In this document: positions 18,874-29,103 of the stretch, in pieces
Numbering within the stretch: position 1 is the stretch's first letter
Layout: the number at the start of each line of letters is the position of its first letter
DNA from: Patescibacteria group bacterium
GTDB taxonomy: Bacteria > Patescibacteriota > Minisyncoccia > Phycocordibacterales > UBA918
Assembly (NCBI GenBank): GCA_038065355.1
Contig: JBBTRC010000010.1
Span: forward strand, 11,452-75,451
Length of the DNA stretch: 64,000 nt
Direction: 5' to 3'
Made by a program: the position numbers and the translations under genes
The notes under the pieces: model-generated
The model's input: the letters and a program-made list of their open reading frames with translations, nothing else
Told to the model about the DNA's origin: nothing
The model's database searches: none

Positions 18874-18946
18874 CCGCCCATAGCTCAGTTGGTAGAGCGG
18901 CTCCCTTTTAAGGAGAAGGTCCCAGGTTCGAGCCCTGGTGGGCGGA
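18874..18946 (+). tRNA. tRNA-Lys (anticodon UUU)
   Basis: cloverleaf: acceptor CCGCCCA/TGGGCGG, D-stem GCTC/GAGC, anticodon loop CUUUUAA, T-loop TTCGAGC, discriminator A; CCA not encoded. Confidence 0.8.
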
Positions 18947-21463: not shown

Positions 21464-23851
21464 CTATGTGTCTGTGCGGTTAAGCTTCTCCATTTCTTCC
21501 CAATTCGGCCCGATTTTCACTTCAGCCAAAATCGGGACTCCGTACGTCTCCTTCTCGTCGAGCGCGTGCTCCATGAGGTGAAGAAGCGGTGGTACCTGCG
21601 CTTTTACGTCGCTGGTTTTGACTTCAAACACGAGCTCATCGTGGATCTGAAGGAGGAGGCGGACAGTATCGACCAATTTGTGCCCTTTTATGTGCGCGGC
21701 AATCTGCACCATGGCGATGCGCACGATGTCGGCGGCCGTACCTTGAATCGGAGCGTTGATGGCCATGCGTTCCGCTTGCGCGCGGATAAACGGCACGCTT
21801 GAAGTGATGCCGGGGAAATGACGCCGGCGACCAAACAGAGTTTCGGTGTAGCCCTCTTTGCGAGCAGCTGTTTTTGTATCCTCCAAGTATTCGGAGAGAT
21901 GCGTGAAGGTTTGGAAGTAGGCAGTGAGGAAGGCTTGCGCTTCTTGGCGCGAAGTATCTCCGCCTAAATTTTGGCGGAGCGCATTGACGCCCATGCCGTA
22001 AAGGATGCCAAAGTTGATAACCTTGGCTTGGCGCCGCATGTTGTCGGTCACCTCCTCCGCATTCACGCCAAACACACGCAGTGCCACGCCGCGATGCACG
22101 TCCTCTCCGCGTTTGAAGATATCAATGAGGTTGGGGTCATGGGACATGATCGCGGCAATGCGCAACTCGATTTGAGAGTAGTCGATAGCGACCAGCGTGT
22201 AGCCTGGCGACGCAACAAAAGCTTTGCGGATAGCTCTTCCCTCTTTCGTGCGCGTAGGGATGTTTTGGATATTTGGATCTTTACTCCCCATCCGGCCGGT
22301 CGTGGTGCCAGTTTGGAGGAAAGTGGTATGCAGTTTGCCGTCCTTATCAACCATAGTCGGCAAGGTGTCGATGTAGGTTGAAACCAACTTTTGCAACTCC
22401 CGGTAACGGAGGATGTCCTCGATGATGGGGTGGGTGCCCTTCAGTTTTTCCAATTCTGACTCTTTGGTGGAACGCTGACCGCCGGCGGTTTTTCTGGCGT
22501 TCTTTATTTTGAGACCAAGCGTGTCAAAAAGAATATCTCCGAGTTGCTTCGGCGAATTGATGTTGAATTCTTTTCCGGCGTGCTGGTAGATGCGTTTTTC
22601 GAGCGTCACAAGTTCGACGTGCAGTTCTTTTGAGAGCTGTTTTAGATACTTCACGTCAAGCGTGATGCCGGTCTGTTGCATCATTTCAATAACTGGAATA
22701 AGCGGTTGCTCAATGTCGGTAAAAATATGCCAGAGGCCTTGTTCTTTCACCTTTTGCTTCAAGGCTTTGACTGTCTCTTCCCAGTTGTTGGCTTTGAGAA
22801 AAGAACGTCCGTATTCCAAAATGTCGGCAACGGTTCCGTTGGTGCGTTCGCTCTCCAAGAGCCAAAGCAAAATCGCCGCTTCTTTATGCGCCTCGGGCGT
22901 GATATTGTCATCAACCTCTGTGGCGGCTGGCGCCAGCTCAAATAACTTTCGCACTCGGTCCGTCACGGTGCGGAAACCAAACTCACTGAAGAGTTTGAGG
23001 ATGGCGTCGGTATCGGCGCGCTCGCGCCAGCGCGTGTCGGTGACGGTGAATGACGGAAGCGCGTCGGTGCGGATGGTCGCCAGCATTTTTGAGAATTCAG
23101 CTTCTTCTTTGCCTTCTTTCAAAAGCGAGACGAGGCGCGGAGAGAGACCAGCGTCAAGAAATGCCTGCTCGTTCTTGGCGAGCGCTTTGTATATTTTTTC
23201 GAGTGAACCGAAGGTGGTGATGAGGGTGGTCGCGGTCTTTTCGCCAATGCCGACGATGCCGGGAATGTTATCGGACGTGTCACCGCGGAGACCTTTATAG
23301 TCGGGCACCAACTTAGGCGGAAAGCCGAAGCGGTCAATGACCGTCGCTTCGTCATATAAAATGGTGTCTTTGATTCCTTTTTTCAGCGTGTAGACCTGCA
23401 CCCGTGTCTTGTCGACGCACTGCAGGGTGTCCATATCTCCCGACGCGATAACAACGCGGAGGTTTTTTTCTGTTTTTGTCAGGTGCGCGATGCTACCCAA
23501 GAGATCGTCAGCTTCGAAGCCCGATCGCTCAAATATAGCAATGCCGAACGCCGCAAAGACCTCGCGTGAGCGGTCGATTTGGGCCACGAGCGCCTCGTCA
23601 ATCTTTTCGCGCTTGGCTTTATAGCCGTCGAAGGCGTCGTGACGATAGGTAGGCTCCGGCAAGTCGTAGCACGCGACGAGGTACTCGGGCTTAAACTCTT
23701 CGATGATCTTGAGGAGCATCGTCACGACGCCGTAGAGCGCACCGGTCGGCTCGCCCGTCGGTGAAGAAAAATCCGGCAGAGCGTGGTACGCCCGATGCAG
23801 AATCGCATGCGCGTCGAGAATCACCAAGGTTTCCTGAGACGTTTTAGACAT
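21464..23851 (-). CDS. polA: DNA polymerase I
   Basis: 5'-3' exonuclease domain (LVILDAHAILHRAYHA...), family-A polymerase motifs (DYSQIELR, RRQAKVINFGILYGMG, QIHDELVFE); ORF extends to 23938, likely start MSKTSQETL. Confidence 0.9.
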   Translation of the reverse strand: MSKTSQETLVILDAHAILHRAYHALPDFSSPTGEPTGALYGVVTMLLKIIEEFKPEYLVACYDLPEPTYRHDAFDGYKAKREKIDEALVAQIDRSREVFAAFGIAIFERSGFEADDLLGSIAHLTKTEKNLRVVIASGDMDTLQCVDKTRVQVYTLKKGIKDTILYDEATVIDRFGFPPKLVPDYKGLRGDTSDNIPGIVGIGEKTATTLITTFGSLEKIYKALAKNEQAFLDAGLSPRLVSLLKEGKEEAEFSKMLATIRTDALPSFTVTDTRWRERADTDAILKLFSEFGFRTVTDRVRKLFELAPAATEVDDNITPEAHKEAAILLWLLESERTNGTVADILEYGRSFLKANNWEETVKALKQKVKEQGLWHIFTDIEQPLIPVIEMMQQTGITLDVKYLKQLSKELHVELVTLEKRIYQHAGKEFNINSPKQLGDILFDTLGLKIKNARKTAGGQRSTKESELEKLKGTHPIIEDILRYRELQKLVSTYIDTLPTMVDKDGKLHTTFLQTGTTTGRMGSKDPNIQNIPTRTKEGRAIRKAFVASPGYTLVAIDYSQIELRIAAIMSHDPNLIDIFKRGEDVHRGVALRVFGVNAEEVTDNMRRQAKVINFGILYGMGVNALRQNLGGDTSRQEAQAFLTAYFQTFTHLSEYLEDTKTAARKEGYTETLFGRRRHFPGITSSVPFIRAQAERMAINAPIQGTAADIVRIAMVQIAAHIKGHKLVDTVRLLLQIHDELVFEVKTSDVKAQVPPLLHLMEHALDEKETYGVPILAEVKIGPNWEEMEKLNRTDT

Positions 23852-23902
23852 AATGTCAGTATACTTTGTTTCTCCGACGTGCACTATAAAAAAACACTTT
23901 AC

Positions 23903-23930
23903 ACTTGACATAAGGTCAAGTATGTGTATA
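23903..23930 (+). promoter_or_regulatory. sigma70-like promoter TTGACA-N16-TATATT for the 24001 ORF
   Basis: near-consensus -35/-10; predicted transcript starts with perfect 9-bp hairpin CAAGCTACA-TGG-TGTAGCTTG and SD GGAAGGAAGGAA. Confidence 0.45.
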
Positions 23931-24000
23931 TTTAACAAGCTACATGGTGTAGCTTGTACCTTAATCAGTACCTCACAACTCGAATGGAAGGAAGGAACTA

Positions 24001-24603
24001 ATGCAAACCGCTCATGTCATTCTGAAGAGCATTTCTCCGCTTTTGCTCAATCCGATGACCGACGAGACGCTTGATGAGCTTTTCGCCGGCTCCGGAGCAC
24101 GCAAATTGCGGAAGACTGACGTTACGCAGGAAGCAGTCGCCGCCAAGAAGGTCATCCGCGACGATGACGGCAACATCGGCCTGCCGGTCGAATACCTCTT
24201 CGCCGCCTTGGTGAACGCCGGTCGCTTCGTGAAGTTTGATTCCAAAAAGAACTTCACCAACGCAACGTCATCGCTGGTGCCCGGCCTGCTTACGCTCGGC
24301 GAAATGTTCTACCCGTTCAAAGATCAGAAAACGCCCTGGACGATCGACAAACGCCGCGGCCGTCTGGCCTCAACCGGTGTCGCCGTCGCCATCATTCGTC
24401 CCAAGTTCAAAGATTGGGCGATTGACCTCACGGCAGAATTCGACGAGGCGCAGGTGAGCGAATCGAAGATTCGCGAACTTTTCAACGCGGCCGGTCGCTT
24501 TTCCGGCCTCGGCGATTTTCGGCCAGCGTGCAAGGGTCCGTTTGGGCGCTTTACGATCGACAGCTGGGAAGTCGTCAAGTCAGAAGTTCGTGAAGCCGCC
24601 TGA
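24001..24603 (+). CDS. hypothetical protein with RAMP-like glycine-rich loop (200 aa)
   Basis: strong SD; C-terminal GRFSGLGDFRPACKGPFGRFTI resembles the G-rich loop (GxGxxxxxGhG + beta-strand) of Cas5/Cas6/Cas7 RAMPs; N-terminal SPLLLN strand. Confidence 0.5.
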   Translation: MQTAHVILKSISPLLLNPMTDETLDELFAGSGARKLRKTDVTQEAVAAKKVIRDDDGNIGLPVEYLFAALVNAGRFVKFDSKKNFTNATSSLVPGLLTLGEMFYPFKDQKTPWTIDKRRGRLASTGVAVAIIRPKFKDWAIDLTAEFDEAQVSESKIRELFNAAGRFSGLGDFRPACKGPFGRFTIDSWEVVKSEVREAA

Positions 24604-25916
24604 CGTACAAGTCTGAATGGCAAGCATGAGCACTCTGCTCCTTCTTGCTATTCTCGCCCGTTCTGTGGGTCGGAGTCTGTGTCATGGACTCCGACTTTAC
24701 ATTACGCACTGTGACGTGTCGTCGGGCAACGTCCGGTCCAGCAGGTTGCGTTGTGCTTAGTTGCGGGTTGGGAGTTTGCAAACTCCCAACAGCTTACGGA
24801 TGGGTAAACTATGGCGCAGTGGGCTCATCCGCGCTCCAGTACGTTGCAGTCACCTATGGATCGGGAGCTTCTGGAGCTCCCGATTTTTCAGACCCAATTT
24901 TGAACGCTTAGTCTACGCGTAGTCACCTGGACTAGTGCATACTTAAGGTCGGGAGTTTCGCCTCTCGACACCTTACCGTTCGGAGTGGTGATGTATGGCT
25001 GTGTCCAGTTAGCCAAAGCAAGGTCCACTACAGGCCAGAGGACTCTTCCTTTGGCAACCTTTGTTCGGTATACTCCCGTTCACTTTACCCGACCAACCTT
25101 TGGTTTACTCCAGCATGGGTTGGATGCACTCCGGTGCTTCCAACATGAATAGAGTAATCTTGGGTGCACTTGACTTGGCTCTTGTCGCGTTAACCACGGT
25201 AAGGGTCGAGAGCTTGGTCTCTCGACAATTCTCAGCTCGGCTTAGTGGGCTGGACTCCCCCAATCTCCACTACGATGGATCACTGTACTGGTCAGGAATC
25301 ACAAGATTCCTGACACATTTGCACTACTGTGCGGCACGCACCACTATCCTGCGTCATGGTGTACTCCGGTTAGCTCTGGGCTGGAAGCTAGAGATAGCTT
25401 CCAGCAAAATATCGCTCTGTAAGGTTGGGTACAGTTGAGTGGTCTCTTGTGTCGTCACCTCATCTTTGGGTTGGAGGGTTTCGACTCGTCAACACTCTTT
25501 ACAGCAAGGTATTGTAGCGTAGCGTTGGCTTCACTACCCTCTCGTAGAATTAGGCTTAGTCGAGTATGGGCGGGGAGGCCTGGGCCTCCCCGCATATCTT
25601 TATTCAAGTTTTGTTCCTTACGTCCTGCGGAGCCTTGCTCCGCCTGATCGCTGGATGTGTATCCAGCCCGATGAGTCCGAAAGGACGAAATCAGTTTTGT
25701 TCTGAGGTCACGTGCGTCTACGTGCGTTCGGCCACTCCGAACTTATGTTTGGGTCGGGAGAGTCCTGACTTTCCCGACATTCTTGCTGTACGCAATTGTG
25801 TGGTCCACCATCCAGTGGTTCCGCATGGTTAGCTACGCCGGAGTAGCGTCCGGGCAGGGAATCTCACCCGAGATTCCCTGCAGTTCTTTGAAAATTAGTC
25901 TTGAAAGGAGACTGTA
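24604..25916 (+). repeat. 1.3-kb non-coding region A densely packed with perfect hairpins, including GTCGGGAG/CTCCCGAC-family repeats
   Basis: family hairpins at about 24669-24695, 24948-24969, 25205-25226, 25753-25778; other perfect stems 24767-24790, 24861-24883(+T5), 25292-25313, 25380-25405, 25570-25593, 25855-25880; no ORF with RBS. Confidence 0.65.
25644..25694 (+). ncRNA. hammerhead ribozyme-like motif, type III topology (possibly degenerate: U4->C)
   Basis: CUGAU-C^-[GCUGGAU-GUGU-AUCCAGC]-CCGAUGA-[GUCC-GAAA-GGAC]-GAAA-UCAG: stems I, II, III, the GAAA and cleavage triplet AUC all in canonical arrangement; only core U4 replaced by C. Confidence 0.45.
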
Positions 25917-27743
25917 ATGAAGCATCCCAACATGGCGAGAGCCTTTCCCCGCCATATCCATGAAGAGACGAAAGACAGCCAGCGCGAAGCGTTGAACTTT
26001 CTCACGGAACATGGGTGTGGTCTCATCGAAAAGCCGACCGGTTCTGGTAAGACCGCCACCGGTATCACGTTTTTACGAGCGTATGAAAAAGCTGGCGTGC
26101 CAGTGCTTTTCTATCTCGTGCCCAACAAAACACTCGCAGCACAAGTGCAGGAACAATACCCTGAAGTTCGAGTCGTCTACGGACGAAACGAACATCCCTG
26201 TCTGTACTACGAGGACAGCTATCAAGCTGATGAAGTACCGTGTTCCATGCTCGGCGACTGTCCCCACCGTGTCGATCAAGATACTGGACAGACACACGAA
26301 CCGGGAGCTTTGCCTTGCCCGTATCTTCAGCAGAAGTACGAAGCGAAGCAGGGCACGATCGTCGTCGCTACCTATGCCTTCTATCTTTTCGCCCATTTCT
26401 TTCAAAAGGAATGGGGAAAGAAACAGGAAGCGATGGTGATTGACGAGGCACATCGCCTTGCCGAATCTATCCGCAGCGTGCTTTCCTATGAGATCACTGA
26501 TTACCAGCTCGGCCGGGCACTTGAAGCGCTTTCTGGCTTTGCTGATGATCAAACCATTCTGCGATTAGAGGAATTCCAAACGTCGTTTCTCAAGATCATC
26601 AAGAGCAAACCTTCGGGCCAGCGGATGATTCTGACAGAGGACGACATCTACGAACTTCTCTATCACGTCCAGCTCTTGCAACCAACGCGCCTGCGCCAAC
26701 AAATTGCCGAAGCAGTACGTAAAGGCCGGCTCGATCCGATCGCTGACCGCGAGACGCTCCGGCGTCTTGAGGATATTACCTACAGCCTGACGCGTTACCT
26801 GCGTTCGCTCGAGTATTCAGTGAAAGATGGGAAACGCAAAGCGCTTAACTACATCTTCGCCTACTGGCAATCAGAAAAGGGCGAGCATGACAAAGTGCAG
26901 TATCGGCTAGTCGTAAAGGCGTATGCGGTTGGACCGCTGATTGCCAAAATGTTGCCGAAACGTCTCTTGGCCATGAGCGCGACGATCAGCGATCCAGACA
27001 TGTTGAAGATCGAAAGCGGGATTGATTTGCCGTTTTTGTCTTTGACATCTGACTGGCCGTCTGAGAACACGCGCATCTTCATGCCGACTGACTCACCAAA
27101 CTTGGCCGTCAATAAACGCGGCCGAGATGGGGTGGTGCGAACGCAAAATACGCGGGAAAAGACCAAAATCCTGCGCAAGGTCGCCAAGGCATGTAAACGC
27201 TTTGGCGACCAAGGACTGCGGTCACTCGTTGTGGTTGTCTCAAATGACGAACGACACAAATTCCTGGCCCTAGCGGAAGAGGAAGGTGTCGATGTCATCA
27301 GCTACGATGCAGAACGAAAGCCACGAGAGGTCGCCCAAGCCTTTAAAGATGGCGAGGGTGACGTGCTTGTTGGCACTACCGCTCACTTTGGCGAAGGAAT
27401 CGACCTGCCCGACGGCACGGCGCCGATCACTTTCTTTCTGCGGCCAGGCTACCCAAATCCTACTGAACCAGGTACGCAATTCGAGGCAGATCGTTTTGGC
27501 AGTCGACGGTGGGCTCTGTGGCAATGGCGCGTTATCGTGCAAGCGCTACAAGTCCGCGGTCGGAACGTGCGGAGCGTAGAAGACAAGGGTGTAACCATCT
27601 TTGTTTCCCAACAATTCCGCAAGTTTCTATTACATTCATTGCCGGAGTGGCTGAAACCCGCCTACCGCGGCAACAGCACCTGGGAACAATGCCTCGACGA
27701 AACGGAGGCGTTACTTCTGAAGCGGAAACGACTGAAAAAGTAG
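25917..27743 (+). CDS. DinG/XPD/YoaA-family Fe-S DNA helicase (superfamily 2, DEAH)
   Basis: motif I EKPTGSGKT, four Cys between motifs Ia and II (C95,C110,C115,C134: Fe-S domain), motif II VIDEAHRL, motif III SAT, C-terminal HFGEGIDLPDG and QxxGRNVRS motifs; SD AAGGAG. Confidence 0.8.
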   Translation: MKHPNMARAFPRHIHEETKDSQREALNFLTEHGCGLIEKPTGSGKTATGITFLRAYEKAGVPVLFYLVPNKTLAAQVQEQYPEVRVVYGRNEHPCLYYEDSYQADEVPCSMLGDCPHRVDQDTGQTHEPGALPCPYLQQKYEAKQGTIVVATYAFYLFAHFFQKEWGKKQEAMVIDEAHRLAESIRSVLSYEITDYQLGRALEALSGFADDQTILRLEEFQTSFLKIIKSKPSGQRMILTEDDIYELLYHVQLLQPTRLRQQIAEAVRKGRLDPIADRETLRRLEDITYSLTRYLRSLEYSVKDGKRKALNYIFAYWQSEKGEHDKVQYRLVVKAYAVGPLIAKMLPKRLLAMSATISDPDMLKIESGIDLPFLSLTSDWPSENTRIFMPTDSPNLAVNKRGRDGVVRTQNTREKTKILRKVAKACKRFGDQGLRSLVVVVSNDERHKFLALAEEEGVDVISYDAERKPREVAQAFKDGEGDVLVGTTAHFGEGIDLPDGTAPITFFLRPGYPNPTEPGTQFEADRFGSRRWALWQWRVIVQALQVRGRNVRSVEDKGVTIFVSQQFRKFLLHSLPEWLKPAYRGNSTWEQCLDETEALLLKRKRLKK

Positions 27744-28560
27744 TCGCTGCAATATCGTGCGGTATCCTTCGCTCCTGTACAGTTAGGTTAGCTACGGTCG
27801 ACTCGACTCCGGGCGGAAGAGCTCCGGTTCTCCCGCGACGTTAGGTCCTGTTTGGTCAGGTTCACACCAGTTCGGTCACCTGTGGTCCGGGCTGGGGATT
27901 AACATCTCCAGCAGAATTTAGTGCAGTGTGGGCTTCCCTATACTTCTCTGGCCTACGCAATCGCACTCTGCGGGCTGGAACGTAAATACGTTCCAGCAAC
28001 ATTCTGTCCGGCAAGGCACGGTTATCTGCGCTAGGTTGGGTCAAACTCAAGTATTGTATGGGCTGGGAAAGCTTCGCTTTCCCTGCTTCGTATCGTATTG
28101 TCGGCTTTAGTGAACCTTACTTGCCCGCTCTGTAGAGTCCTAGTCTAAGGGTCGGGAGATGAACGTCTGCCGACAATATTTCTCCGGGCTTACCTGTCGC
28201 TAGCTTCTGTTTTGTGCACCAATGCACTCTAAGGGTCGAGGAATCGTCTGACTCCTCGACAACTTTCTGTCTGGTGGCGTTGCCTCCAGTCCACTCCGGT
28301 TGCGTGGGGCTGAGTAAGCTATGGGTCAGTGTCTCAGGACACTGACAACATATCGTGACGTTCTGTCGGGTAACTTGCGCCATTCTTGGTAAGGATTAAC
28401 TAGTCTGTGAGTTGGGAGACTTTGTCTCCCAACAACTTTGAGCTAGGTAACGTCCACTAGAGTTAGTCGTCCTGGCGTTCTCTGTGCTTTCGTCACCTTC
28501 TGTATCGGTCGGGAGCGAAAAAGTCGCTCCCGACGTTTCTCTTGAAAGAAAGGAAATCCC
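27744..28560 (+). repeat. 0.8-kb non-coding region B, paralogous to region A (hairpin family plus decayed hammerhead unit)
   Basis: family hairpins at about 28151-28174, 28235-28260, 28411-28433, 28508-28534, variants 28062-28086; GCTGGAACGT-AAAT-ACGTTCCAGC (27974-27997) and GTCAGTGTC-TCAG-GACACTGAC (28325-28346) are covarying homologues of region A hairpins. Confidence 0.6.
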
Positions 28561-28929
28561 ATGCCGCTTGAAATCGGTAAAGGTTGTCGCGGCATGACGT
28601 CAGTGCATGCCAAAAGACACAAGAAGTTGATGTTTCACCACACAGTCACGCGAGAAGCGTTTCATTTCGTCAGTTGGTTGGTTGACCAGAATGAGATTCT
28701 TGAAATTGATCTTGGTAAGGTCGGCACCTATCGAGGTAATACTGAGTTTCGGGTCGACATCGACGACAACACCTTGAGCTTTTTAGTCAAAGGAAACTTC
28801 TCGTACCAAATTATACGAACTACCATCCGACCAATCGTCGCTTACCAACCAAATGCGCTGTTAAAATTTCTTCAGCGTTGTGAGGAAGAGTGGCAAAAGT
28901 CGATGGGGAATCCAGTCGAAACACGATGA
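28561..28929 (+). CDS. hypothetical protein (122 aa)
   Basis: ORF with SD AAGGAAA; no recognisable motif; flanked on both sides by family hairpins. Confidence 0.45.
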   Translation: MPLEIGKGCRGMTSVHAKRHKKLMFHHTVTREAFHFVSWLVDQNEILEIDLGKVGTYRGNTEFRVDIDDNTLSFLVKGNFSYQIIRTTIRPIVAYQPNALLKFLQRCEEEWQKSMGNPVETR

Positions 28930-29044
28930 CTTGCAGTAGCGTAAACCTATCTTCGCCCAGGTATTCTTGACTGTGGTTGCCTGCGGGTGGGGGTTATTTC
29001 CCCCACAACACTCAAGACTATATTTCTACAGTTATTCTTTACGG

Positions 29045-29103
29045 GTCGGGAGCTTCTTTTTGAGACTCCCGACAAACACCTCAAATAACGAGGTGTTTTT
29101 TAT
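29045..29103. terminator. family hairpin (GTCGGGAG-N13-CTCCCGAC) followed by bidirectional terminator CACCTC-AAATAAC-GAGGTG-T6
   Basis: second hairpin is flanked by A- and T-runs, between the 122-aa ORF and convergent tsaE. Confidence 0.5.

Follow-up and report, generated by a model that had tools for sequence, protein, structure and literature searches.

A predicted type III hammerhead ribozyme with a rare core change in a guide-RNA array of a Patescibacteria VIPR locus

VIPR (Viral Interference Programmable Repeat) is a phage-derived, RNA-guided system, which is proposed to be older than CRISPR. The system comprises a small ancestral RAMP protein (Vipr), an accessory vap gene, and guide RNAs, the vrRNAs (10.64898/2026.04.26.720920; companion preprint 10.64898/2026.04.26.720927). 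The vrRNAs have a length of about 100 nt and consist of 9–16 YNNGG pentamers and a conserved structured 3′ tail; NNNGG, YNNNG, and NNNNG occur as alternative pentamer consensuses. Double-stranded DNA is recognized by the variable NN positions, with one nucleotide skipped, and competing phages are silenced in this way. Seven VIPR types were described—with nucleases or helicases in types III–V—and "hammerhead ribozyme-interspersed" vrRNA arrays were presented with examples from types I and V, the processing of which was confirmed by small-RNA sequencing (figs. S19/S20 of 10.64898/2026.04.26.720920). Hammerheads in clusters also flank prophage genes and cut polycistronic RNAs in vitro; U10.1–U11.1 is a natural mismatch of these ribozymes and the best tolerated one, and viroid infectivity persists with the change U4C, although the activity measured in vitro drops considerably (PMC3088659). 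Here, a 64,000-nucleotide stretch of a Patescibacteria group bacterium (GenBank contig JBBTRC010000010.1, positions 11,452–75,451; hereafter the window) is described, which features a predicted 51-nt type III hammerhead ribozyme within an array of vrRNA-like units, located between a vipr gene and a helicase gene (Table 1).

The ribozyme adopts the topology of a three-way junction with the order III–I–II–III, in which stems I and II are closed and stem III is open. Its RNA reads CUGAU-C / GCUGGAU-GUGU-AUCCAGC / CCGAUGA / GUCC-GAAA-GGAC / GAA-A / UCAG. The core follows the hammerhead consensus at all conserved positions except for position 4, which carries C instead of U (C4 instead of U4), and C17 is permitted as H17. 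Direct reading of the letters gives the sequence and the layout of the parts exactly as laid out in a preliminary description of this DNA. For a permissive descriptor of type III, which accepts U as well as C at position 4 and stems from 4/3/4 bp upwards, 0.025 matches are expected on the two strands of a random 64-kb sequence compared with one observed; the stems of this copy, the sole one in the window, are far longer than the descriptor demands. The 51-mer folds better than all of 200 shuffles (z = −3.6).

Related loci carry the same element. Relatives of the 200-aa open reading frame upstream of the array were fetched with 41 loci; homologues of this frame reside mostly in metagenome-assembled genomes of Patescibacteria. 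A strict descriptor identifies 21 type III hammerheads among these loci and the window, and a covariance model raises the total to 22. This model, R1, was made from an alignment of 19 homologous copies, in which 93.1% of the cells are paired across all three helices, 14 of the 19 pairs feature changes on both sides, and the covariation score amounts to 0.658—compared with 0.12 at most for control partners slid by 1–3 columns. R1 scores the window copy with 71.4 bits (E about 1e-15) and reveals no copy in the fetched loci beyond the 22, which stem from seven sources: the window, L001, L002, L003 (nine copies), L005, L007, and L009. All of these Patescibacteria copies have the same orientation as the genes and either follow vipr or precede the helicase gene. 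Their stem I comprises 7 bp and a loop of 4 nt, and their stem II comprises 4 bp and the loop GAAA, except for a long stem II insertion in L002. U4 is present in 20 of the 22 copies and C4 in two, the second being one of the nine in L003 (at 5882). The nearest relative of the window, L001, has a Vipr identity of 66% and the canonical core CUGAUGA. The noncoding regions of the two (1.2–1.3 kb) cannot be aligned, save for the ribozyme with the hairpin in front of it and for the helicase ribosome-binding region. As judged by these comparisons, the motif is a real hammerhead of type III, which is conserved in evolution, carries one rare core change, and is predicted to cleave itself. The preliminary description had named such a ribozyme with C in place of U4 and had raised whether relatives restore U4: the former is borne out by conservation and covariation, and the latter holds for L001 and most other copies.

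The same architecture is abundant in viral contigs. An exact-pattern scan of IMG/VR for the GUGU/GAAA architecture returned at least 120 stretches (L046–L165), and R1 was run on the first 80 of these loci, where the subfamily with 7-bp stem I/GUGU and 4-bp stem II/GAAA counts at least 147 copies, often 2–6 per locus. Homologues of Vipr and of the helicase are absent from all 120 viral loci listed. Sequence features were parsed for 131 viral copies. Loop I is GUGU in 105 of them, and loop II is GAAA in 89 and AAAA in 33 (together 122); position 10.1/11.1 is U–U in 85 and G–C in 38, and H17 is A in 83, C in 36, and U in 10. By its GUGU, GAAA, G–C, and C17, the window copy is, in sequence terms, a typical member of the subfamily apart from C4. 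The loops are conserved in sequence while the stems covary, which suggests a specific loop–loop contact, in which loops I and II may meet in a tertiary interaction. A "minimal" hammerhead without this contact, and hence of low activity, had been expected beforehand; this expectation is not supported by the conserved GUGU and GAAA/AAAA loops. In the 139 viral copies with full flanks, a Shine–Dalgarno sequence with a start codon follows within 80 nt in 115 cases (random control, 31; median offset, 16 nt), and a hairpin of at least 7 bp precedes within 60 nt in 79 (control, 36; median gap, 8 nt). The viral module, therefore, appears to consist of hairpin, ribozyme, and ribosome-binding site. R1 retrieves well over 100 unannotated viral hammerheads, which suggests that current annotation undercounts this class.

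The surroundings of the ribozyme match the description of a VIPR locus. A family profile of the 200-aa protein matches chain D of PDB entry 36pp, "SUSP1 Vipr protein," over the full length with an E of 1.4e-14, and the single sequence still matches 36pp at 4.9e-7; the protein conforms to the definition of Vipr, an ancestral RAMP with a mass of about 20 kDa, a single RNA-recognition motif, and a G-loop. The same Vipr protein is encoded on four other contigs, each of which matches 24001–27743 with an identity of 100%. Array A features 13 perfect hairpins at a spacing of 85–103 nt, which are alike in shape (GYNGGRA...) and unlike in sequence, each preceded by YGG and followed by A. The variable tracts in between are uniform in length (60–76 nt), unique, and not conserved between species, and they do not exceed shuffled sequences in their degree of structure (mean z −0.46). 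With the hairpins as anchor for the pentamer phase, phase 0 is T in 65% of cases and either pyrimidine in 85%, and G or C occupies phase 4 in 80%. Almost every tract closes with a YNNGG pentamer, after which the hairpin follows. The spectral power at period 5 amounts to 0.51 in array A and 0.59 in array B, compared with 0.15–0.21 in coding DNA, and is also raised in L001, L004, L006, L010, and L013. Tandem pentamers with a structured 3′ tail, as expected of vrRNAs, are thus apparent in the letters. The Vipr match and the pentamer periodicity, therefore, characterize the region as a VIPR locus with the ribozyme at a vrRNA–vrRNA junction, a context absent from the preliminary description. Upstream of the ribozyme lies a short unit, which closes with the hairpin abutting stem III. 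The accessory gene is putatively represented by the XPD/DinG-like helicase, a candidate vap. This protein matches Helicase_C_2, ResIII, and DEAD_2 of Pfam, has PADLOC typeIV_DinG (type IV CasDinG) as its top match in the defence library (E 4.7e-42), and matches XPD/Rad3 in the PDB at 6e-15. It accompanies vipr in at least 19 of the 41 homologous loci, with the array always upstream of the helicase and co-oriented. The helicase gene and orf122 are embedded within the guide-RNA arrays.

A type IV-like CRISPR variant was the first reading of this region and was dropped upon the Vipr match and the pentamer periodicity. No Csf1, Csf2, or Csf3 gene was found within 19.5–31.4 kb, and Tandem Repeats Finder (TRF) returned no repeat array. 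Repetitive extragenic palindromic (REP) elements and integron attC sites were considered for the hairpins as well, but both are at odds with the orientation of the hairpins, their even spacing, and the periodic tracts. When the flanks of all loci were searched for guide targets, without application of the skip rule, only repeat-to-repeat matches emerged.

It is likely that the hammerhead acts as a protein-independent processing site at a vrRNA-unit junction of this locus. The plus strand of 24001–29100 would probably be transcribed into one or few long RNAs spanning vipr, array A, helicase, array B, and orf122. The ribozyme would fold in this transcript and cut after C25649 during or after transcription. 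The upstream product would then carry at its 3′ end the front hairpin and CUGAUC with a 2′,3′-cyclic phosphate, and the downstream product would start with a 5′-OH at the stem I hairpin and continue into the next vrRNA, one more unit, and the helicase mRNA. In this way, the ribozyme may set the 5′ end of the vrRNA unit that directly follows, free a vrRNA end, and part the helicase transcript from the array before it. Owing to C4, this copy would probably cleave more slowly than its U4 relatives. The locus would be a natural case of ribozyme-defined guide-RNA ends, comparable to the ribozyme–gRNA–ribozyme cassettes of bioengineers.

Several observations weigh against an active processing site. 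In a 261-nt search with relaxed settings, Rfam Hammerhead_3 (RF00008) reaches 20 bits at an E of 0.065, compared with a gathering threshold of 48.5. The minimum free energy structure swaps stem III for an alternative 3-bp pairing, and the hammerhead fold lies 1.2 kcal/mol above it. Positions 3–4 of the parsed viral copies are CU in 129 cases and AU in two, with C4 in none, and the near-invariance of U4 in the family makes C4 probably deleterious to catalysis. The window has more than 20 unit junctions, and the ribozyme occupies a single one of them, so that most vrRNA ends here must arise otherwise. In phages, the ribozyme stands close to the start codon, but here, two more hairpin units intervene before the helicase gene begins. 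Finally, no promoter-like site of the sigma-70 type was found within 24500–26100.

The Rfam score would suit a chance resemblance, in which hammerhead-like words flank a periodic hairpin of the array by accident; the region is rich in hairpins. At the gathering threshold, the window ribozyme is not called, and the match at relaxed settings is local, covering model positions 9–47 and leaving out stem III. However, all nine copies of L003 escape Rfam even with E values as high as 1 allowed, and so do, at the gathering threshold, the ribozyme copies in seven viral loci. Since relatives with a canonical core are missed as well, the low score reflects a limitation of the model and is no counter-evidence. 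The preliminary description had proposed Rfam as a check and a nonsignificant score as a refutation: a match to Hammerhead_3 is seen, albeit below the threshold, and the refutation is invalid for the reason given. The 71-bit score of the homologue model, the covariation in three stems, and the low expectation for even a loose descriptor refute chance; moreover, the stem I hairpin with its 7 bp and GUGU belongs to the ribozyme family and not to the tail-hairpin family. Chance resemblance is, hence, considered practically negligible, and the case illustrates that a ribozyme call by eye can hold though Rfam rejects it. Across the window, the Patescibacteria loci, and the viral loci, Rfam at gathering and E-value thresholds yielded no usable hammerhead match, and in the arrays without a hammerhead, it identified no other known ribozyme. 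The only match in the window at the gathering threshold is a tRNA at 18874–18946 on the plus strand (67.9 bits; anticodon loop CUUUUAA).

The element could also be an inactivated relic of a ribozyme-interspersed array as found in L003, in which U4C has killed catalysis and the vrRNA ends are produced by host RNases or "staggered" processing. The scarcity of C4 in viral and Patescibacteria copies and the single ribozyme left among more than 20 junctions are in line with this view, as are the strong cuts in in vitro activity caused by U4 changes (PMC3088659). Decay, however, is not apparent in the remainder of the element: the stems are perfect with 7/4/5 bp, both loops follow the consensus, and G10.1–C11.1 and A15.1–U16.1 are present. 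In addition, an orthologous single copy is kept in the same place in L001, where the surrounding array has diverged past alignment, and U4C is functional in vivo in a viroid (PMC3088659). A scan of viral contigs with the same pattern and C4 yields four stretches; those in L169 (59 bits) and L167 (44 bits) are ribozymes that are intact in all other respects. Together with the L003 copy, these show that C4 is rare—a few percent at most—yet recurs independently in otherwise perfect copies. A relic is, therefore, regarded as quite unlikely, and the C4 copy offers a clean natural test case for the tolerance of a full-length hammerhead to core variation.

The position of the copies bears on the purpose of the cut. 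In every ribozyme-bearing Patescibacteria locus, the last copy lies 30–270 nt before the helicase start; two copies in L002 flank the helicase gene on both sides; and the majority of viral copies stand just before a ribosome-binding site. An active ribozyme might, hence, serve chiefly to process a messenger—by giving the helicase mRNA a defined, structured 5′-OH end and uncoupling its stability from the array—with vrRNA maturation being incidental. This is possible, but doubtful: two more vrRNA-type units precede the helicase start in the window, and the nine copies of L003 part noncoding units, each of which closes with a long hairpin. The ribozymes of L007 and L009 bracket a homologue of orf122. 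Messenger processing and the preferred processing of vrRNAs are not mutually exclusive.

Folding may provide a role for C4. Stem III is formed by CUGAU and AUCAG and, therefore, the CUGAU of a canonical core could pair with the same 3′ strand. By nearest-neighbour calculation, the U4 revertant is predicted to misfold at −21.7 kcal/mol, compared with −17.5 kcal/mol for the native hammerhead fold; the advantage of the misfold amounts to about 4 kcal/mol with U4 and 1.2 kcal/mol with C4. A joint proposal would combine these elements: a distinct, very abundant, Rfam-invisible subfamily that would serve phages as a portable, intercistronic hairpin–ribozyme–ribosome-binding-site module and would have been recruited by VIPR arrays; C4 as an adaptive hypomorph in place of damage in this Patescibacteria lineage; and a locus that is perhaps outside the seven types. 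The last point draws on the location of helicase and orf122 between two arrays and on units of sister loci with their own sigma-70 promoter and terminator. If true, C4 would favour the correct fold at the expense of the chemistry, and the guide array and the helicase mRNA would be split slowly and in a tunable manner. As a whole, this proposal is considered unlikely.

Unit ends appear to be produced differently across lineages, as the promoter and terminator junctions of L011 and L017 imply. Most junctions of the window are without a ribozyme and without a recognizable promoter. In L011 (6590–8260) and L017 (6570–8000), the tail hairpins double as intrinsic terminators and are directly followed by a near-consensus TTGACA-17-TATAAT promoter; 13 and 11 such promoters lie at junctions, respectively, compared with about 2.5 expected. 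These two arrays look like tandem independent small-RNA genes, and in L011, an identical hairpin is used five times with differing variable tracts. Plain tandem terminators were considered as an explanation of the hairpins and rejected; yet they take on this function in L011 and L017 beside promoters. Array turnover far outpaces the point divergence of the flanking genes: L013 (2287–5840) and L014 (4049–5877), as well as L022 and L024, have Vipr identities of 97% and 89%, but their arrays differ up to two-fold in length and have only scattered, reshuffled pieces in common; at 97% identity, the arrays can, for the most part, not be aligned. Two further junction motifs were observed. In L002 and L003 (e.g., L003 5160–5200 and 5455–5500), a small hairpin of 7 bp closed by a GNRA loop, CTCTTTGATTCATTAGCTCATT-GCAA-AATGAGC, recurs after some tail hairpins without a hammerhead. 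In L010, L018, and L024, a second conserved, AT-rich hairpin is located about 8 nt past many tail hairpins, e.g., ACAATTCTTAA-gaaa-TTGAGAATTGT, then TTGAGAT; this hairpin might likewise mark junctions or serve in processing where an array has no hammerhead.

The small protein Orf122 has homologues of about 120 aa in L001 (10371–10778), L007 (7435–7791), and L009 (6971–7330), and the family features the invariant residues R10, H16, H20, K22, and H26-x-T28-V. No match was found in Pfam, PADLOC, or NCBIfam, a word-index homology search returned only the protein itself, and the AlphaFold2 single-sequence model is unusable with a predicted local distance difference test score (pLDDT) of 51. The HxTV motif is reminiscent of 2H phosphoesterases, enzymes acting on 2′,3′-cyclic phosphates—a resemblance we take as a guess. 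Directly upstream of vipr, a PolA-type DNA polymerase I with 5′–3′ exonuclease and DNA_pol_A domains is encoded divergently at 21464–23938, and a polA fragment is also present near the L007 locus. A blastn search of 24000–28000 against phage GenBank sequences gave no match. Outside Patescibacteria, Vipr homologues occur in metagenome-assembled genomes of Magnetococcales, Desulfovibrionaceae, Myxococcota, and Planctomycetia (L019, L020, L023, L025, L027–L034, and L036–L039). These loci are dense clusters typical of replication modules of mobile elements or phages, are without the XPD/DinG-like helicase, and feature as neighbours a serine recombinase, ParB, a PD-(D/E)XK nuclease, AAA_24, RecD2, and a ResIII helicase.

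Table 1. Features of the VIPR locus and of the predicted ribozyme; coordinates are those of the window
Feature	Position	Strand	Description
vipr	24001-24603	+	200-aa ancestral-RAMP (Cas7-like) protein; PDB profile match to Vipr
vrRNA array A	24604-25916	+	about 13 units of ~64-nt YNNNS pentamer tract, YGG, perfect tail hairpin, A
Tail hairpin starts, array A	24669, 24767, 24860, 24948, 25034, 25119, 25205, 25291, 25380, 25470, 25570, 25753, 25854
Front hairpin	25627-25643	+	7 bp, GCGGAGC CUU GCUCCGC; abuts stem III; equivalent precedes the L001 ribozyme
Type III hammerhead ribozyme (predicted)	25644-25694	+	direct reading, homologue alignment, covariance score
Stem III	25644-25648 with 25690-25694	+	5 bp, CUGAU/AUCAG, A15.1-U16.1 included
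Cleavage-site nucleotide C17 (H17)	25649	+	predicted cut at 25649/25650
Stem I	25650-25656 with 25661-25667	+	7 bp, loop GUGU
Core CCGAUGA	25668-25674	+	C at position 4 is 25669
Stem II	25675-25678 with 25683-25686	+	4 bp, GUCC/GGAC, G10.1-C11.1, loop GAAA
GAA box (G12 A13 A14)	25687-25689	+
vrRNA unit directly 3′ of ribozyme	25695-25778	+	11-12 in-phase pentamers (25695-25752), tail hairpin (25753-25778)
Helicase, candidate vap (vipr-accessory)	25917-27743	+	608 aa, XPD/DinG family, superfamily 2; Pfam, PADLOC, PDB
vrRNA array B	27744-28560	+	8 or more additional units, each a pentamer tract with a hairpin
orf122	28561-28929	+	conserved small protein; homologues inside hammerhead-bounded units of L007 and L009
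Last two tail-type hairpins	28987, 29047	+
Classical intrinsic terminator	29074-29100	+	closes the block

Type IV CRISPR-Cas (Csf2/Cas7 and CasDinG) resembles the locus by a Cas7-like RAMP beside a DinG-family helicase, with a noncoding array of repeat and variable parts in between. Unlike type IV systems, the locus is without Cas5, Cas8-like, Cas6, and Cas1/2 proteins, and its RAMP groups with Vipr and not with Csf2. The "repeats" of the locus also differ from CRISPR repeats, being hairpins that are conserved in shape only, and the variable tracts are pentamer-periodic.

The RF00008 hammerheads of viroids and satellites, e.g., sTRSV and PLMVd, resemble the window copy in their topology, in which stem III is open, in the core apart from position 4, and in the tetraloop that caps a stem II of 4 bp; U4C is known naturally in a viroid as well (cited in PMC3088659). 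The window copy differs by its low score with this model, by other and much shorter loops, and by its residence in a DNA genome instead of a circular RNA replicon.

The prophage clusters resemble the present subfamily in being intergenic, co-oriented with genes, and multiple per locus, in the proposed cutting of polycistronic RNAs, and in the occurrence of U10.1–U11.1 and U4C variants (PMC3088659). Type II hammerheads were newly found in that work; the present subfamily is of type III, with a fixed 7-bp stem I closed by GUGU and a 4-bp stem II closed by GAAA, and it escapes Rfam at the gathering threshold.

The closest described systems are the hammerhead-bearing VIPR arrays, and a hammerhead in a VIPR array is a class already described there (10.64898/2026.04.26.720920); a literature search on hammerheads and Patescibacteria returned nothing. 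The window has in common with these arrays a Vipr RAMP, pentamer-periodic guides with a 3′ tail, a helicase-type accessory gene, and a hammerhead between vrRNA units. Unlike the published arrays, its pentamer is a degenerate YNNNS instead of YNNGG; its ribozyme is present at one junction only and carries C4; its helicase gene and orf122 lie between two arrays; and its host is a Patescibacteria chromosome.

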